Shown piece by piece: positions 3,078 to 10,822 of a stretch of DNA of 64,000 bases. Numbering within the stretch: the first letter of the stretch is position 1; each line of letters opens with the position of its first letter. The position numbers and the translations under genes were made by a program. The stretch spans positions 32,001-96,000 of the forward strand of contig CAVRFW010000007.1 of assembly GCA_963720565.1 (NCBI GenBank), in the 5' to 3' direction. This DNA is from Candidatus Bathyarchaeota archaeon. Lineage in GTDB: Archaea; Thermoproteota; Bathyarchaeia; Bathyarchaeales; Bathycorpusculaceae. The notes under the pieces were generated by a model, which was not told the DNA's origin, did no database searches, and saw only the letters and a program-made list of their open reading frames with translations.

Positions 3078-3587
3078 TTAGGAAGTTTCGTAGCCTGCTG
3101 CCTTAAGCTCCTTGAGTATTTCCGCTCTAATCTCATCCAATGAATCTTTAAAACTCAGGTAAACGATGCCCTGCATATCCGAAGGTTGTTCAACGGGTTT
3201 CTTGAGCAAACAGGCAATCCTGTTACGACCCAGCTTTCCCACAAAAAACCCGAATTCAAGAATCACGTTCTGTCTGGGGCGGGGATAGGCGGTTTTCAAA
3301 AACTTTCTAAGCCTCTGAGGCCTCGACCAAATGCTACCCATTTCAACAAAACCGCCTAAGTCGTCAGGAGTTAGAATGACAAATACGAAACCGACATCCG
3401 AGTAAGCCTCAAGCTTCTCGATCACCGTCTTGCCTCCGCTTGGCTGTTCGCTGAGAACGACAGGTGTTAGACCAAAATCAACAAGCATAGTCTTGAGCTC
3501 ATTTAACGGCTTCAGGTCTTTTCCGTGAGCAATAAAAATCTCTTTCTTCAGAGCTATCGACTTTTTTGGGTCGGTTTCACTTTGCAT
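3078..3587 (-). CDS. Stand-alone TIR-like nucleotide-binding domain protein (PF10137 / CAP12-like TIR)
   Basis: IFIAHGKD, TVIEKLE, ILTPDD and RQNVILEFGFFVGKLGR motifs. Confidence 0.85.
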   Translation of the reverse strand: MQSETDPKKSIALKKEIFIAHGKDLKPLNELKTMLVDFGLTPVVLSEQPSGGKTVIEKLEAYSDVGFVFVILTPDDLGGFVEMGSIWSRPQRLRKFLKTAYPRPRQNVILEFGFFVGKLGRNRIACLLKKPVEQPSDMQGIVYLSFKDSLDEIRAEILKELKAAGYETS

Positions 3588-3805
3588 TTTGACACCTTCT
3601 CGATAAGACTTGTATTCACTAGTTATGTCAAATTCAAAATTTAAGCCCTAAGTACGCCCGGTTAAGCCCGGAGCTTCCCAAGGAGGAACACGCGCTACTT
3701 CAAGAAACGGGCAAACCAAACAGGTCTAAAGATTTTAGCTAGACTAAAACCTCAACGAACTGGAAAAGAAAAAAATGGAGAAGCAAATGTACTTGCGCCG
3801 AGGTT

Positions 3806-3856
3806 TTACGCTTTCTTTGCCGGAGCCTTCTTCTTTGCTGCTTTCTTCTTAGCCAC
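3806..3856 (-). CDS. 16-aa Lys/Ala-rich micropeptide MAKKKAAKKKAPAKKA (histone H1/tail-like); not in the ORF track
   Basis: GTG start, GAGG RBS, TTTTATATA box about 40 nt upstream and a T-tract downstream; composition is only K, A and P after the start. Confidence 0.6.
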   Translation of the reverse strand: MAKKKAAKKKAPAKKA

Positions 3857-4116
3857 TTGTATAGCCTCGGGATTTTATGTATGATAATAATTTGTATATA
3901 AAATTTGCTAAAGCCTGGCGTTTCATATTGTGCCTCTTTAATCGAAATCTAAAGGGCTAAACCATGAAATCTCTAAAAGAGTCTGTTTTTCGATTTTTTG
4001 CCTTGGAAAAACCATTCAGAAGTTGTAGAGGCAGAAATTGTTAATTGTGTAGGCGGAATGTAAAATACAAAGGTTAATATTGCCTTAAAAAGAAAAAGAG
4101 GTGTGGAGAAGTCAAT

Positions 4117-4338
4117 ATGGTCGAATCAGAAATTGCTGTAGCAACCATGCACAGATTATGCAAAAAAGCTGGTGCTGAAAGAGTGAGCGAAGCAGCAGCA
4201 AAGGAACTTGCAAAGGCACTTGAAGAAATTGGCGTAAAGATTGCTAGAGAAGCACTTGATTATGCTATGCATGCCGGAAGAAAAACCATCAAAACGGAAG
4301 ATATCGAGATCGCCACTAGAAAAGTCATGGAAAAATAG
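4117..4338 (+). CDS. Archaeal histone (HMf-like histone fold, no tail)
   Basis: AGAERVS...A.HAGRKTIKTEDI signature, 73 aa. Confidence 0.95.
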   Translation: MVESEIAVATMHRLCKKAGAERVSEAAAKELAKALEEIGVKIAREALDYAMHAGRKTIKTEDIEIATRKVMEK

Positions 4339-4420: not shown

Positions 4421-4510
4421 GGGTGGCTTGGGTTTGCTGGTTTACCTCAAGAAACCCCAGAGGGATGGGAGTCTAGGAAGAAAACAGCGTTAACACTATT
4501 AATCATAGCG
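4421..4510 (+). pseudogene. Orphan relic junction: CTERM-tail DNA (motif C) joined to a decayed signal-peptide head
   Basis: ggcttgggtttgctggtttacctcaagaaac...gatgggagtctaggaagaaaacagcgtta matches the intact junction at 39971-40050, but ATG is replaced by AGG and there is no gene body. Confidence 0.7.
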
Positions 4511-4609
4511 TGCATTAGATGTTGAAGTTGAAATGACTAAAGCTGTTCGGATGCTTTTGGGTTTATCATTAATTATGGCACGTGCGCCATCACGAGAGGG
4601 AACGTCAAA

Positions 4610-5815
4610 TTGAAGAGAATTCTGTTTGTAAGCGGTTCGCTCGGTTTGGGGCACGTTGGAAGAGACATCGAAATCGCGAAGGAACTCAGAAAGCTTCGCA
4701 ACGACGTTGAAATCTATTGGATGGCTGAATCCCCCGCTTCAGAAGTGCTCGAAAAAGCAGCAGAAAGACTCTTGCCAGAAGCCAGCCAGCTATACTCATC
4801 GAATTTTGAGCTGGAAAAATCCACCAAGGAATACAAAGCCAACCTCGTCCGATGGGTAAAAAACATGCAAAAGGGCTGGACCAAGAACACCGAAGTCTAC
4901 GCCAAGATATCTGAAACTTATGATTTTGACCTCTGGATAGGTGACGAACCCTACGACATCATGATTGCCTATGAAAAGAATCCGAGCCTAAAGAAATGCC
5001 CCTTTGTGGTTATCAACGACTGTGTAGGATTAGACACAAACACATGGAATCCCGTCGAACACCTCATAGTCAGCATGACGAACAAAGCGTGGCTGAACTT
5101 CCTGAGAAGCGAACCACCACTCGCTGAATTGAACATCATCATAGGAGAACCGGAAGACGTCCCGGACAAAAACTTCGGCTTCATGCGCCCCAACCGCCGC
5201 AGAATCGCTGAAAAATTCGCGAAATTCGTCGGCTACGTCCTTCCAGAAGACATTGAAGAATTCAAAGACAAAGCTTACGCGCGCAAACTTCTAAACTACG
5301 GAAACGAACCATTAATTCTGTGTTCCATAGGCGGTACAGCAGCGGGAAAAGACCTTCTCGATCTATGCATCGCCGCTTACCCAGCCATGAAGGAAAGAAT
5401 CCCAGAACTCCAGATGATCCTGGTTTGCGGACCACGCCTGGCGCCGGATTTCGTCAAAGCCCCAGAAGGCTTGAAAATTGTTGGCTATCTACCTGACCTT
5501 TACAGGCACCTAGGCGCAGCCGACCTTTCCATCGTAACAGGGGGCGGTACGGTAACACTTGAGCTGACCGCTCTCGAAAGACCTTTCCTGTACTTTCCTC
5601 TCAGAGACCATGCTGAGCAGCAGTTTGCCGTAGCTCCAAGATGTAAGCGTCACAACGCCGGCGTCAGGATGGATTACTCAAAAACCACTCCTGAACTACT
5701 CGCCGAGACCGTGTTGTCCAACATCGGCAAACGAGTGGAATATCCTAAGCTTCCGACAAAAGGAGAACAAGAAGCCGCGCGACTGATCGATCAGATTCTC
5801 AGCGGGAAAGTCTGA
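4610..5815 (+). CDS. GT-B glycosyltransferase (GT28/MurG-like C-terminal domain)
   Basis: GLGHVGR N-terminal motif, SIGG, ADLSIVTGGGT..E and EQ motifs. Confidence 0.8.
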   Translation: MKRILFVSGSLGLGHVGRDIEIAKELRKLRNDVEIYWMAESPASEVLEKAAERLLPEASQLYSSNFELEKSTKEYKANLVRWVKNMQKGWTKNTEVYAKISETYDFDLWIGDEPYDIMIAYEKNPSLKKCPFVVINDCVGLDTNTWNPVEHLIVSMTNKAWLNFLRSEPPLAELNIIIGEPEDVPDKNFGFMRPNRRRIAEKFAKFVGYVLPEDIEEFKDKAYARKLLNYGNEPLILCSIGGTAAGKDLLDLCIAAYPAMKERIPELQMILVCGPRLAPDFVKAPEGLKIVGYLPDLYRHLGAADLSIVTGGGTVTLELTALERPFLYFPLRDHAEQQFAVAPRCKRHNAGVRMDYSKTTPELLAETVLSNIGKRVEYPKLPTKGEQEAARLIDQILSGKV

Positions 5816-5878
5816 ACTTGGCGCGCAATGACCCAAAAATAGAGAAAAAAGATTTAGTCAGCTTCCTTTGATCTTCCT

Positions 5879-6322
5879 CTACGCCTCAAGAGTTTGCTTT
5901 AAGTTTTCCAGCATTCCTTCCATGAATTTTTCGGTGTCTTTGCTGTACTTCACCTTGTCAACAAGCTTTCCCAAAATGGAGTAAGGCACTTCGTATTCAT
6001 CTTTGTATGTTAGTTTGGTTCCCACAGGAGTCGGTTCAAAGAGACCAGTTATCGTCATGTTGAGTTTGCTGTCTTTGACTGTTCGCATAACAATCTTCTT
6101 GTTCTTCTCAAATTCAATTATCTCTTCGTCCCATTCGCCCTTTATCTTAAATTCTTCTTTCGGCGTCCAATGCGAAACCGAGCCAACTCCAATAGGTCCT
6201 TCTGAGATCCATTTCCCCTCCAACCATCTTCCCCACACATCATTCATCTTGTCGCTTAACATGAAGGCGAAAACCTTCTCAGGAGGCGCCTTGATATTGA
6301 CAGTCTTAGTTATCCTTGCCAC
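5879..6322 (-). CDS. SRPBCC (polyketide cyclase/START) family protein
   Basis: ITKTVNIKAPPEKVFAF...GPIGVGS; GTG start after GGAGGTGA. Confidence 0.8.
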   Translation of the reverse strand: MARITKTVNIKAPPEKVFAFMLSDKMNDVWGRWLEGKWISEGPIGVGSVSHWTPKEEFKIKGEWDEEIIEFEKNKKIVMRTVKDSKLNMTITGLFEPTPVGTKLTYKDEYEVPYSILGKLVDKVKYSKDTEKFMEGMLENLKQTLEA

Positions 6323-6789
6323 ACAATCACCTCCTTCCGTTTCTTTTGCGCCAGATAATCGTTGCAAGCTTTGAAACCGAGTTGCATGACTTCCGAATGC
6401 GCTTTTGCCGTGTCTACGAAAGGAACGATAAAACGGAACAATAGCTTCTTGGGTCTAACGGTAAACCGAAACCTCGTATTCGTTTTTTCATCTCTCGGTA
6501 CAAACGTGTATACTCCAGTCCCCACAAAATCACCTGCATATTCTAGTTCTATCAACTTGTCCTCCACCAGCTTCGTAATCTTGGCGGAACACTTGAGACT
6601 AGTTCTGCTCTCCGGATTGATGGTTGCGTCAAAGACTGCCCCCTCACGAGCGATTGAACCCATAGGATTGAATCTGATATGTGGCATCCACCATTTTGTG
6701 ACCCCGAAGAGCTCGTTCAAGAAAGCAGTATAGACCGCCATTGGTGGGCTGTCAATAACTGCTTCGTCAGTGACGTCAATTTTGGCCAT
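6310..6789 (-). CDS. SRPBCC family protein
   Basis: IDSPPMAVY...WWMP pattern; overlaps the downstream SRPBCC gene. Confidence 0.7.
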   Translation of the reverse strand: MAKIDVTDEAVIDSPPMAVYTAFLNELFGVTKWWMPHIRFNPMGSIAREGAVFDATINPESRTSLKCSAKITKLVEDKLIELEYAGDFVGTGVYTFVPRDEKTNTRFRFTVRPKKLLFRFIVPFVDTAKAHSEVMQLGFKACNDYLAQKKRKEVIVWQG

Positions 6790-7000
6790 AAACGCTCACT
6801 GCACCTACCTGCTCAAGATGTTCTTTCCAATTGGCCATCGAATCCGTAGATTTTTGAACTTTCTCGATTCGAACCATAAACCTCGCCATGAGTAATCTAT
6901 CCTTGCAGACGAGAGATAAAATCTCCTAAGAAGCGTTTATGAAAAATAATAGTTCGCTATAAATGCCATGATTGTGAGAATAGGCGGTTACGCACCACTT

Positions 7001-7768
7001 CTATTCCCGTTTGGCTCTTCCCCAATAGTGCAAGAACAGTGATTTAGCCCAGTTGACCGCAATTTTGTCCTGCGACTTAAACGACCCATAGTCAAAAATG
7101 CCTTCCAAATTCTCGAAGCCTATTCCGGCAAGTTCCTTCTCCGATAGGAACATGAAGACGCCGATAGTGTCCAAGTACCTGCTCTCCGCCTTCTTTGCTC
7201 TGGCGGCACGATCAAAAGCAGGGTTGTTTGCCAACTCCAAAATGGCTGGGGGAATTGATGCAGTCTTAGGCATCAGTTTTCTAACCTCTACACCACGGGC
7301 AATGGCTTCAAGGAAGAGTGGCAAGGAACTGGGAAGAATCTGGTCGACGATGATCCACATGAACTCTTGAGCTTCCTTCACCGCGTTTTCTGCGTTGAAT
7401 AACATTTCTGTGACACCGTTAACATATTCACTCTTATGTAAGGCACCTATGCTTGCGGCGAATTCTGTAGGCAAAGCTGAGATTCTGTGTGTTTTGAAGT
7501 ACTTCTTGTGTTTGGAAATGAACGCAAAGCTTGGAATAAACTGCAGAGCTGCTTCTCCTACGGGCGTCAGATGAAAAAAGCCGTCCGCATCTTTTGCGAT
7601 GAGGTCTGATTCGGTCAGCCGCGCCATGTTTCTCGCAGTTTCAGGAACGGTGAAGTTGAATCTTTCAGACACGCGAGAAAGTCTAATGGGGCTCTTTTTT
7701 ATTTCTCTGAGAATGTTGAGTCGATCCTCGTTTGAAAGTTCAAAAAAAAGAGCACAGAGTTCTGCCAT
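7001..7768 (-). CDS. ArsR-like winged-HTH regulator with C-terminal sensory domain
   Basis: LFFELSNEDRLNIL...ETARN..RL HTH; paralog of the adjacent gene. Confidence 0.8.
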   Translation of the reverse strand: MAELCALFFELSNEDRLNILREIKKSPIRLSRVSERFNFTVPETARNMARLTESDLIAKDADGFFHLTPVGEAALQFIPSFAFISKHKKYFKTHRISALPTEFAASIGALHKSEYVNGVTEMLFNAENAVKEAQEFMWIIVDQILPSSLPLFLEAIARGVEVRKLMPKTASIPPAILELANNPAFDRAARAKKAESRYLDTIGVFMFLSEKELAGIGFENLEGIFDYGSFKSQDKIAVNWAKSLFLHYWGRAKRE

Positions 7769-7923
7769 TTCTCAGATTACCTTTTGCCACTGGTTGTTTT
7801 TTGAAATTGCCAATACTGTAGTTTATAGTTGACTATTGTATTTCATATTTTCTGTTCGGAAGTTCAATGTTGAGTCTATAGCAGGCGCAGGTTTCTTTGT
7901 CTTCTGATTAGTCTTAGTGCGTG

Positions 7924-8688
7924 CTATCGTTTTGTTTTATCCCAATAGTACGAGAACAAAGATTTTGACCATTTGTGTACGACTTCGTCTTTGGACGTAA
8001 ATCCAAGATAGTCAAATCTTCCATTCGTTTCCGGAAAACAGAGCGTTGCAACTTCCTTTTCAGAAAGAAAAATAGCCACCTCAATTCTTTCAGCATATCT
8101 GCTTTCGAACTTCTTATCTCGTGCAGCGCGATCGAATACGGGATCATTGGCCATTGCAAGAATATCGTCTGGAATACTGGCGTTTCTAGGCAATAGTTTC
8201 TTGAAGGCAACTCCGCGTTTAACCGCTTCAACAGCTATGGGCAGTCCGCTCGCGAGAAGCTGATCAGCAACAAACCAATAGTATTCTTCAGCTTCGCTCA
8301 TCACTCTTTCAATGTTGCGCATAGTTGTCGTCACTTCACTGACTATTTTGCATTTCTCAAGGCTACCCAAACTCACCGAGAACTCGTGAGGTAACTTGGA
8401 TAGAGAATGAGTCAGGAAGTAACTTCTATTCTTGGAAAGAAATTCAAAGCCCGGAAGCAACTCCAAGGCTTCCTCCCCCATGGGAGTCAAATGATAAAAG
8501 CCGCCCGAATCCTTGGCAATCAGGTCTTCCTCGTTGAGTCTCGAAATGTTTCGCGCGGTTTCTGGCACAGTGAAACCAAACTTTTCGGAAATGCGAGAAA
8601 GCCTCATCGGATTCTTCTTGAGCTCACGAAGTATGTTGAGGCGATCCTCATTTGAAAGCTCAAACAAGAGACCGCCCAAGTCTTTCAA
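7924..8688 (-). CDS. ArsR-like winged-HTH regulator, tandem paralog
   Basis: Colinear with 7001..7768 over its full length. Confidence 0.8.
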   Translation of the reverse strand: MKDLGGLLFELSNEDRLNILRELKKNPMRLSRISEKFGFTVPETARNISRLNEEDLIAKDSGGFYHLTPMGEEALELLPGFEFLSKNRSYFLTHSLSKLPHEFSVSLGSLEKCKIVSEVTTTMRNIERVMSEAEEYYWFVADQLLASGLPIAVEAVKRGVAFKKLLPRNASIPDDILAMANDPVFDRAARDKKFESRYAERIEVAIFLSEKEVATLCFPETNGRFDYLGFTSKDEVVHKWSKSLFSYYWDKTKR

Positions 8689-8836
8689 CTTTCAGACCAT
8701 CCTCCCTTGCTTGAACACATACTGAAGTACCCCGTTCTTGATGTACATCGCTTAATAGTTGATTATTATATTTCATATTTTCTGTTTAGAACATCTTATC
8801 TTCTTTTTTTGCCTCACTTATATTTTGGCGAAGCAT

Positions 8837-10522
8837 ATGGAATCAGCAAAATACGATGCAATCATCATCGGTTCAGGCCTTGGAGGCTTGTCGTGTGGCG
8901 CCTACCTCGCTAAAAACGGCTTGAAAGTACTGATTCTTGAAAAGCACACCACCCCCGGAGGATATGCCACTAGCTTCAGAAGAGGCGTTTACACTTTTGA
9001 CTCAACTCTTCACATGATCGCTGGCGTAGGCAAAGGGCAAGACATGTATAGATTCTTAGAATGGTGCGGAGTCGCAGACGAGATAGAATTTCTCAAGCTC
9101 AAACATTTTGCTAGACTAGTCTTTCCAGACCACGATCTGCGAGTGCCAAACGGAAACCTGGAAGAAGTCACAGTGCTCTTGGAAACGAGTTTTCCAAACG
9201 AAAAAGGAATCAGACCTCTTCTCAGGGAAATGACCAAAATTCATGATGACACGCGCAGATTCGTACTCTCGGAGGCACCGATGTGGCAACAGTTACCCAT
9301 CTTTCCATTCAAGTACAGATCACTTTTTCGGATGCTCAAAAAGACAGCCAAACAACTCCTCGATAAACACATCAAGGATTACAAGCTGAAAGCCATTCTA
9401 TTGGCAAACTATGGTTTCTTCGGCTTACCACCAAGCAGATTGAACGCGCTCTCGGTATACGCCAACATCACTTACTGGACTGACGGTGCGTACTACCCCA
9501 AAGGCGGAAATCAAACAATACCTAACGCGTTTGCAGAATTCATCAAACGCAACAAAGGAGAAATTTACCTCAACTCACAAGTCACCTCAATCATAACCGA
9601 GAAAAACCAAGCTATAGGTGTCAGGACAAGAAAAGGAGAAGAATTCTTCGCCGAAAACATAATCTCCAACGCCAGCGCCCCCGAAACATTCCACACCCTC
9701 ATAGGAGACCGAAGACTACCCACCAAATTCCTCGAAAAAATGAAAGGAATGGAACCTTCCACCTCAGGATTCATGGTCTATCTTGGGTTAGATGAGGAGT
9801 TCAAAGCTAAACTGAACAATACAGAGGACTACGAAATCTTCGTCTCAGAAACCTATGACCAAGACACAGACTACGAATGGATAAGTCAATGTGAGACAGA
9901 GAAAGCTAGCTATTTCATAACACTACATTCCAACGTTGACGAATCATTAAGCCCAGCCAACAGATTTGTACTGTCCTTGACTCAGGGTCAACCGTACAGC
10001 CACTGGAAGAAATTCGAAACCGACTACAAAACGGGCAAAAAAGACGAATACAACAAAGAAAAAGACAGACTCGCAGGGATACTCATCAAGAGAGCCGAAA
10101 AAATAATCAGCGGATTATCAAGACACATCGAAGTCATAGAATCAGCAACCCCCCTAACCCTGGAAAGATACACGGGCAACTTCAACGGCGCATTCTACGG
10201 ATGGGCTAACACCACAACTCAATTTACACCTATGGATAGAATGGTCAATAATCCAATCAAGCATCTGCACCTAAGCTCAGCCTGGACGTTTCCAGGAGAA
10301 GGTCAGGCAACAACCATAGCCTGCGGATATAGAACAGCCAGGCATATAATCGGAAGAAAGAAAGGGAAGTATAGGAAGGCTTTGAAACTTTCATTTGTCA
10401 TCATAGCAGTCGCAGTAATTGCCACGCTTTCTCTTCTGCTAGTAAGCTGCAAGAAGTTGTTCATGTCTTACCTGCCAAAATATCCTTGTTGCGACACAAG
10501 AAGGTTAACAAAGTTTTTCTAG
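8837..10522 (+). CDS. Phytoene desaturase / retinol saturase-like FAD-dependent oxidoreductase
   Basis: GSGLGG FAD motif, EKH..PGGY, YYPKGG and ATPLT..RYT..GAFYG; C-terminal hydrophobic extension. Confidence 0.82.
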   Translation: MESAKYDAIIIGSGLGGLSCGAYLAKNGLKVLILEKHTTPGGYATSFRRGVYTFDSTLHMIAGVGKGQDMYRFLEWCGVADEIEFLKLKHFARLVFPDHDLRVPNGNLEEVTVLLETSFPNEKGIRPLLREMTKIHDDTRRFVLSEAPMWQQLPIFPFKYRSLFRMLKKTAKQLLDKHIKDYKLKAILLANYGFFGLPPSRLNALSVYANITYWTDGAYYPKGGNQTIPNAFAEFIKRNKGEIYLNSQVTSIITEKNQAIGVRTRKGEEFFAENIISNASAPETFHTLIGDRRLPTKFLEKMKGMEPSTSGFMVYLGLDEEFKAKLNNTEDYEIFVSETYDQDTDYEWISQCETEKASYFITLHSNVDESLSPANRFVLSLTQGQPYSHWKKFETDYKTGKKDEYNKEKDRLAGILIKRAEKIISGLSRHIEVIESATPLTLERYTGNFNGAFYGWANTTTQFTPMDRMVNNPIKHLHLSSAWTFPGEGQATTIACGYRTARHIIGRKKGKYRKALKLSFVIIAVAVIATLSLLLVSCKKLFMSYLPKYPCCDTRRLTKFF

Positions 10523-10609
10523 CACGTCAATTAGTACAGAAAAGGAAATTACAGAGGCGCTTCTAAGAGTCTGACGATAGTTACAGAAAATGCGTGGAAG
10601 GTGTCGAGA

Positions 10610-10822
10610 ATGAGTTTGCTGCGGAATGCTTTCGGACGGCTGCGGCGCGGGCTTCCAAAAATGGATTTCATGAAAAACAAGCACGAAGACTGCGCTAACT
10701 TTGATAATGGAGCCTGCAAATTCTTTCATTTCACCAATGTGGACCCTAAGGGGCAAGCTTGCCCGCACTTCAAAGCTAAGAAGAAGGCAGAAGTTGAAAC
10801 CGCCGATGCAGGTCATGCCTAA
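10610..10822 (+). CDS. Small Cys-containing protein related to 2710..2958
   Basis: HEDCANF...C...ACPHF; GAAGGTG RBS before ATG 10610. Confidence 0.5.
   Translation: MSLLRNAFGRLRRGLPKMDFMKNKHEDCANFDNGACKFFHFTNVDPKGQACPHFKAKKKAEVETADAGHA

Follow-up and report, generated by a model that had tools for sequence, protein, structure and literature searches.

Nearly all archaeal histones are devoid of tails. Homologs of linker histone H1 were not found in archaea, according to a 2018 review (PMC6136690). The closest described systems include the tail-only H1-like proteins (kinetoplastid H1, the TgH1-like protein of Toxoplasma, and the bacterial H1-like proteins) and the C-terminal domain of H1; the tail-only proteins act on chromatin (PMC9769792).

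The window, i.e., the whole 64,000-nucleotide stretch of Bathyarchaeia DNA analysed, contains a micro-gene for a Lys-rich peptide next to a gene for a tailless histone. This micro-gene is real, conserved, and under protein-level selection. The reading that we prefer, with a probability of about 0.55, is that its product is an H1-tail-like polycation neutralising and bridging DNA in histone chromatin. The locus consists of the following elements:

3764..3775, minus strand: T-tract, predicted archaeal terminator, where the conserved two-gene module ends on the left
3806..3856, minus strand: Lys-rich micro-ORF of subtype B16, GTG start, 16 codons plus TAA, net charge +8
3857..4116, no strand: divergent intergenic region of 260 bp with two separate promoters
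3865..3868, minus strand: ribosome-binding site GAGG of the micro-gene, 8 nt before the GTG, read from the sequence
3895..3909, minus strand: predicted promoter of the micro-gene (BRE and TATA), shared by the two subtypes and the C9 paralog
4068..4081, plus strand: predicted BRE and TATA-like box of the histone, TAATATTG, conserved across 21 aligned loci
4105..4108, plus strand: ribosome-binding site GGAG of the histone, from sequence reading and the 21-locus alignment
4117..4338, plus strand: tailless HMf-type histone, an extra paralog of 73 aa (Pfam PF00808; NCBIfam archaeal histone NF043032)

After its start residue, the peptide is composed of 8 Lys, 6 Ala, and 1 Pro. The micro-gene promoter reads as a BRE-like AGCAAA (3909-3904) followed by the TATA box TTTTATATA (3903-3895), and the histone TATA-like box, TTAATATT, occupies 4074-4081. 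The GAGG is invariant in cassette alignments A1 and A2, although it formed part of the search patterns. A sigma-70 promoter scan stayed at chance level, the sigma-70 model being ill-suited to archaeal promoters. Across 21 loci, the divergent intergenic region aligns with a mean pairwise identity of 79% and a minimum of 66%. A preliminary description of this DNA had proposed an unannotated micro-gene with its own TATA box, ribosome-binding site, and T-tract, head-to-head with a tailless histone; the signals as read and the shuffles described below bear this out, with a 260-bp spacer between the genes. The co-regulation with the histone that it also proposed is not borne out in the window, where about 170 bp separate one TATA box from the other.

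Chance as the origin of the ORF was rejected on the basis of reversed-pattern controls, shuffles, and the codon-level pattern of substitution. In the window's own 2.09-Mb genome, an SD-like site precedes an ORF of 12-25 aa with a Lys content of at least 45% exactly twice, namely at the window micro-gene and at a paralog (G000:C9:341884-341934); five of five local shuffles contained none. A strict micro-ORF pattern matched in 27 of 332 family genomes, its reversed control in none of the 332, and all 30 strict-pattern loci, when translated, reach a stop after 15-23 codons. The variant codons of window-type cassettes (n=23) are synonymous in 9 cases and non-synonymous in 5, with 2, 5, and 10 changes at codon positions 1, 2, and 3, respectively; for type-A cassettes (n=16), the corresponding values are 12 and 9, and 3, 7, and 16. 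Gaps within the aligned micro-ORFs are multiples of three. Conservation of the frame in relatives with synonymous variation, which the preliminary description had proposed looking for, was therefore found. Four RNA-library runs yielded, in X16 and X17, single 151-nt records over the sORF, which run into promoter or intergenic DNA and therefore say nothing about expression. A peptide of such length, cut by trypsin to pieces of 1-3 residues, would escape both gene callers and routine proteomics. The C9 paralog (minus strand; 16 aa, Lys-rich, same promoter layout) is stand-alone and divergent from an ECF S-component gene; its orthologs usually precede a gene for a two-domain ferritin-like protein.

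The same data bear on the idea that the locus is a leader sensing Lys in cis, or else a non-coding RNA whose ORF is incidental. Subtype B shows complementarity between its SD region and the bases that follow the stop, as such a reading would have it. However, the pairing probability of these segments is 0.14 in the window and near 0 in most cassettes, the terminator follows at once, downstream genes vary, and substitutions follow a protein-like pattern. An SD-sequestering stem was rejected because predicted pairing is inconsistent despite the complementary bases, and because its 5' side is fixed by the pattern. A structured RNA was rejected as well: the RNA fold of the window is no better than that of shuffles (z 0.31), and no Rfam match was obtained at E<=1. 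We give this alternative scarcely any credence.

The lineage that carries the family is named by a GTDB scan, in which 26 of 31 micro-ORF loci are titled Bathyarchaeia. The remaining five are micro-ORFs of Methanosarcinales, Woesearchaeota, and Parcubacteria, a 1.5-kb contig, and an Asgard histone. Similar Lys-rich micro-ORFs with a promoter and an SD thus occur in the Methanosarcinales, Woesearchaeota, and Parcubacteria records (L077, L087, and L103, respectively), and the 1.5-kb contig, titled as a bacterium, bears a cassette of the Bathyarchaeia type. In a metagenome scan, 49 of 49 matches were sORFs. A DNA profile of the micro-gene matched in 55 of 84 family genomes and 15 of 56 others. 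Of its 94 matches, 90 were fetched (omitting the window, one locus already seen, and two weak matches), and 74 of these encode a Lys-rich ORF of 13-25 aa, which was thereby verified in 52 of the 84 family genomes and 9 of the 56 others. The 1168 residues of the 74 peptides comprise 672 Lys, 129 Ala, 99 Gly, 47 Pro, and 6 Arg. Copy number is 1-4 per genome, and all three start codons and all three stop codons are represented among 85 distinct cassettes.

Most of the family is stand-alone, a histone being found within 1.5 kb at just 1 of the 74 profile-found loci. The neighbours of other subtypes include genes for ferritin-like proteins (12), ECF-S (11), Na+/H+ exchangers (10), and ribosomal eL40 (7); neighbourhood alone therefore cannot name the function. 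The subtype that follows eL40 is found at L268, L270, L271, L272, L276, L284, and L285. At three eL40-subtype loci, a divergent Alba gene was considered as a second chromatin link and rejected, as eL40 lies in between. The own genome has four Alba-like genes (G000:C9:198230-198499, C5:212321-212596, C5:364909-365163, and C8:99505-99780). At five loci, an acidic Glu/Asp(-Trp) micro-ORF stands directly upstream of the basic one in a charge-matched, operon-like arrangement (L279:1596-1664, L287:1510-1575, L289:1445-1510, L302:1670-1717, and L303:1549-1587), which recalls the pairing of H1 with prothymosin-alpha. Stand-alone acidic E/D/W micro-ORFs occur in the own genome at G000:C5:234190-234255 (plus strand, 21 aa) and G000:C2:76552-76614 (minus strand, 20 aa).

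Coincidental adjacency was the first reading of the histone pairing and was overturned once extra histone paralogs were examined. The best-hit histone loci in relatives, mostly canonical copies adjacent to a TatD-like gene, had an sORF in 0 of 29 cases, and the exact window pattern matched in only one other genome, inside a long protein. The canonical histone of the own genome (G000:C5:179640-179858) likewise lies beside a TatD-like gene, a neighbour named by eye from the sequence. With sORF-first search patterns, which are blind to histones, a histone was found upstream at all 23 window-type loci that could be evaluated, divergently in 21 and in tandem in 2, a further 3 contigs being too short. 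The corresponding counts are 5 of 6 for the 19-aa type, 0 of 27 for type A, and 1 of 21 for the remaining loci. The histone-first test covered 60 fetched regions, mostly the lower-scoring among the best 150 of 183 genus g17 matches, along with six regions from other families and loci L001-L030; two raw sORF matches inside a histone ORF were dropped from the count. Among the matches listed, an sORF lies within 1 kb of 27 of the 37 evaluable non-TatD histones of g17, as against 0 of 43 TatD-adjacent (canonical) histones; in the other families, the count was 0 of 4. The ten unpaired extra histones of g17 among these matches include seven of another paralog group. The pairing with a histone that the preliminary description had noticed is thus conserved and not accidental.

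Among the matches listed, 24 of the 27 paired g17 loci are divergent and 3 tandem, and the divergent spacers measure 124-128 bp in 17 cases, 404-418 bp in four, and 258, 317, and 763 bp in one each. Overall, the pair persists with spacers of 124-128, 249-262, 317-321, 404-418, and 763 bp; it has also come through four tandem rearrangements, and the flanking genes differ at almost every paired locus. At L110, L118, L146, L150, and L151, similarity to the window stops at 3763/3764, and these five loci share with the window only 3763-4348/4381, that is, both genes and their ends. Close relatives retain the pair where they lack the TIR gene or the block 4460-10530. Since the pair is kept despite the loss of flanks, and five loci share nothing else, the two genes constitute a module of roughly 600 bp. 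At L107 and L133, the histone lies upstream in tandem and starts with ATA instead of ATG; that of L107 is also frameshifted, by assembly error or decay.

The window's genome and genome G020 each hold an ECF-adjacent copy of the micro-gene along with the histone-paired copy. Thus, duplication has affected each of two distinct genes, and the copies have remained side by side. It is this joint retention that argues most strongly for a process in which both take part. A generic polycation (a polyamine substitute, or a binder of polyphosphate or membranes) in a stress regulon, devoid of chromatin specificity, would account for the fact that composition alone is conserved and for the position of type A upstream of the ferritin-like gene at 12 of 74 loci. 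It leaves unexplained why one duplicate was retained beside extra histones through rearrangements; moreover, the composition offers no signal peptide and no hydrophobic face for export or membranes. We accord it a slim chance.

Another alternative is a micro-protein that binds RNA or ribosomes, either akin to eL41 and bS22 or a dormancy factor, whose link to the histone would be one of shared regulation only; we consider it unlikely, with a chance that is nonetheless appreciable. The ribosomal micro-proteins eL41, bS22, and bTHX are Arg-rich and of fixed sequence. Like them, the family is tiny, very basic, and missed by gene callers; unlike them, it is Lys-only, Arg being nearly absent (6 of 1168 residues), and it varies in residue order across subtypes and occurs in 1-4 copies per genome. 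The longer members have no Pfam or NCBIfam match (three of 20-23 aa were without an NCBIfam match, two without a Pfam match). YEATS and eL41 searches of the own genome gave no matches, but neither did their controls, so these blanks say nothing either way. The position directly after eL40 at 7 of 74 loci, the acidic E/D/W micro-ORFs that directly precede the basic one at five loci, and the association of a tail-only H1-like protein with ribosomal proteins (PMC9769792) speak for such a role, which leaves the tie to extra histones unexplained (27 of 37 against 0 of 43, among the matches listed).

The partner histone of the window has neither an N-terminal nor a C-terminal tail, and its net charge is +1, compared with +8 for the peptide. 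It has the residues of HMf-type hypernucleosome histones: G16, R19, H49, D59, and, at hydrophobic positions 46 and 62, Y and I. Residues were numbered by their offset from those that PMC6136690 names; the labels R10, R19, K53, and T54 derive in part from 10.1101/2020.04.13.037952. As for the paired histones as a class, the association seen in the preliminary description holds, with the correction that the partner is an extra paralog that evolves fast and not the cell's main histone. Amino-acid identity is 0.81 among 51 distinct paired histones, compared with 0.92 among 40 canonical ones, while identity at third codon positions is 0.67 and 0.54, respectively. The substitutions H49Y (9 of 51), G51R (19 of 51), and E58K (13 of 51) occur in paired histones and in none of the 40 canonical ones; G16, R19, and D59 are intact. 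Partner histones thus change fast, often at the tetramer interface, where residue 49 governs tetramers (PMC6136690; 10.1101/2020.04.13.037952). Extra histones that lack the micro-gene diverge to the same degree (0.80); fast evolution is therefore a property of extra copies and not of pairing. An unpaired extra-histone clade of g17 comprises L159, L174, L178, L179, L188, L195, and L199.

These histones invite another view of the peptide, namely that of a histone tail in trans, which would dock on the variant histone and be acetylated or methylated as a swappable regulatory tail. The linkage to the variant histone is tight and rearrangement-proof, and in the 124-128-bp class the TATA boxes stand back-to-back, about 33 nt apart. 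The peptide resembles an Asgard histone tail (L100, below); Asgard tails are modified in vivo (10.64898/2026.07.02.735847), and tailed histones and a YEATS homolog have been reported in Bathyarchaeota (PMC6136690). Against this, peptide and histone alike carry a net positive charge, the majority of the family has no linked histone, and the two charges do not co-vary. A fused peptide-histone was not found in 151 class genomes with one N-terminal pattern, the single match of which has an in-frame stop. The chance of this reading is, in our opinion, small.

In a DNA tree, all paired histones are nested among the g17 canonical copies. The paired loci are therefore kin, probably with one origin in g17, and the counts given above measure persistence rather than repeated or independent origins. 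At the DNA level, the window histone shares 89.5% identity with canonical copies of g17, compared with 75.3% with the canonical copy of its own genome; searches for the module found it in G004 but not in G001, G002 (74% complete), or G003. These comparisons suggest horizontal transfer of the module from g17 into the window's genus, although AU tests of transfer retained the alternatives (p 0.24-0.27). A viral vehicle was considered and rejected, six pattern matches being long unrelated phage ORFs; no histone relatives were found in viral contigs, and no integrase, transposase, or tRNA was found among the 60 window ORFs scanned.

Several features of the surroundings should be mentioned. Behind the micro-gene, window positions 3078-3587 (minus strand) encode a stand-alone TIR domain of the CAP12/Pycsar type (PF10137); this gene is absent from a close relative (L132). 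Many surface-protein genes of the window's contig end in a repeat (15 matches on C7, 19 genome-wide) that reads, by eye, as a C-terminal membrane anchor; a remnant of it occupies positions 4424-4462 and marks the edge of the block missing in close relatives. Two small Cys-rich ORFs of 82 and 73 aa (2710-2958 and 10601-10822, both plus strand) share a C-x2-C-like start, and neither has a Pfam match.

According to the preferred reading, that of an H1-tail-like polycation, the 16-residue K/A/P peptide would bind DNA by charge and neutralise or bridge it around histone-wrapped chromatin; inherited as one module, the peptide and the extra histone variant together would probably retune chromosome compaction. 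The peptide may be expressed as a short, disordered, and probably abundant polycation, because the gene has its own promoter, SD, and terminator and forms a single-gene unit like most archaeal NAPs. Its target would be DNA rather than RNA, given the excess of Lys over Arg (672 vs 6 in 74 peptides) and the H1-tail-like K/A/P spacing. The stand-alone copy would serve the canonical histone, and the duplicated module would add a dose-matched second set in which the peptide offsets looser oligomers of the variant. Subtypes differ in residue order and composition but preserve charge, so the peptide probably acts electrostatically and not through a fixed docking site. Because the window histone keeps every interface residue tested, compensation of a weak variant does not apply at the window, and charge compensation between peptide and histone was rejected (rho -0.21, p 0.14, not significant). 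The family being mostly stand-alone, the peptide does not need a paired histone. The preliminary description's H1- or histone-tail-like peptide therefore stands as regards make-up, which matches that of H1 C-terminal tails and of the L100 tail, and is qualified by the mostly stand-alone family. Length limits affinity, 16 residues being far below any of the H1-like proteins found (91 aa in PMC9769792).

No description of such a micro-gene was found in full-text searches of the literature; supplements, small-ORF catalogues, and paywalled papers may hold these peptides unnamed. Widespread unannotated Lys micropeptides, one branch of which accompanies a histone variant, are a concrete candidate for the missing linker or tail component of archaea and bear on surveys of archaeal chromatin proteins. 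A bolder proposal, which we put forward as speculation and hold to be unlikely, is that the histone tail of Bathyarchaeia is a separate gene: a modifiable 16-residue tail acting in trans, carried along with a histone variant by a mobile two-gene chromatin module and attended by acidic prothymosin-like chaperones. If true, it would amount to an unrecognised linker or tail system of archaea and a model for tails and H1 preceding their fusion to histone folds.

How, then, does the module compare with known systems? Canonical linker histone H1 has a winged-helix globular domain; the peptide has 16 residues and no hydrophobic core. With the tail-only H1-like proteins it shares the character of a Lys/Ala/Pro low-complexity polycation devoid of a globular domain (PMC9769792). 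Unlike the TgH1-like protein, a long repeat chain of 91 aa (PMC9769792), all verified members measure 13-25 aa, the window peptide having about one sixth of that length, and, unlike the tail-only proteins in general, the peptide is archaeal, its gene forms one module with that of a core-histone variant, and it has no demonstrable homology to them. Its own promoter, SD, and T-tract, along with its small size, agree with the criteria for archaeal NAPs, among which are small size and a single-gene operon, besides high abundance and enrichment in the nucleoid (PMC7613761).

Among histone tails, the peptide resembles, in length and in the alternation of Lys with small residues, the Lys-rich N-tails of Asgard histones and of one Bathyarchaeota B23 histone (PMC10919886). 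Thus, a Promethearchaeota histone of 86 aa (L100:2284-2544, minus strand) has a K/A/P N-tail of nearly identical make-up to the free peptides. The view taken in PMC10919886 is that tails emerge with ease and on separate occasions; this likeness therefore does not indicate descent. Unlike these tails, which are covalent parts of their histones, the peptide comes from a separate gene, divergent in the window and usually on the strand opposite to the histone. Analogously, the partner histones recall the archaeal variants and capstones of Methanobacteriales in being extra paralogs, with changes at residue 49 in 9 of 51 partners (10.1101/2020.04.13.037952). Capstones have a charged or hydrophobic residue 49, whereas the window copy keeps H49, and its paralog group looks young, nested among the canonical copies of g17. 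The passages on such variants in 10.1101/2020.04.13.037952 make no mention of a partner peptide.
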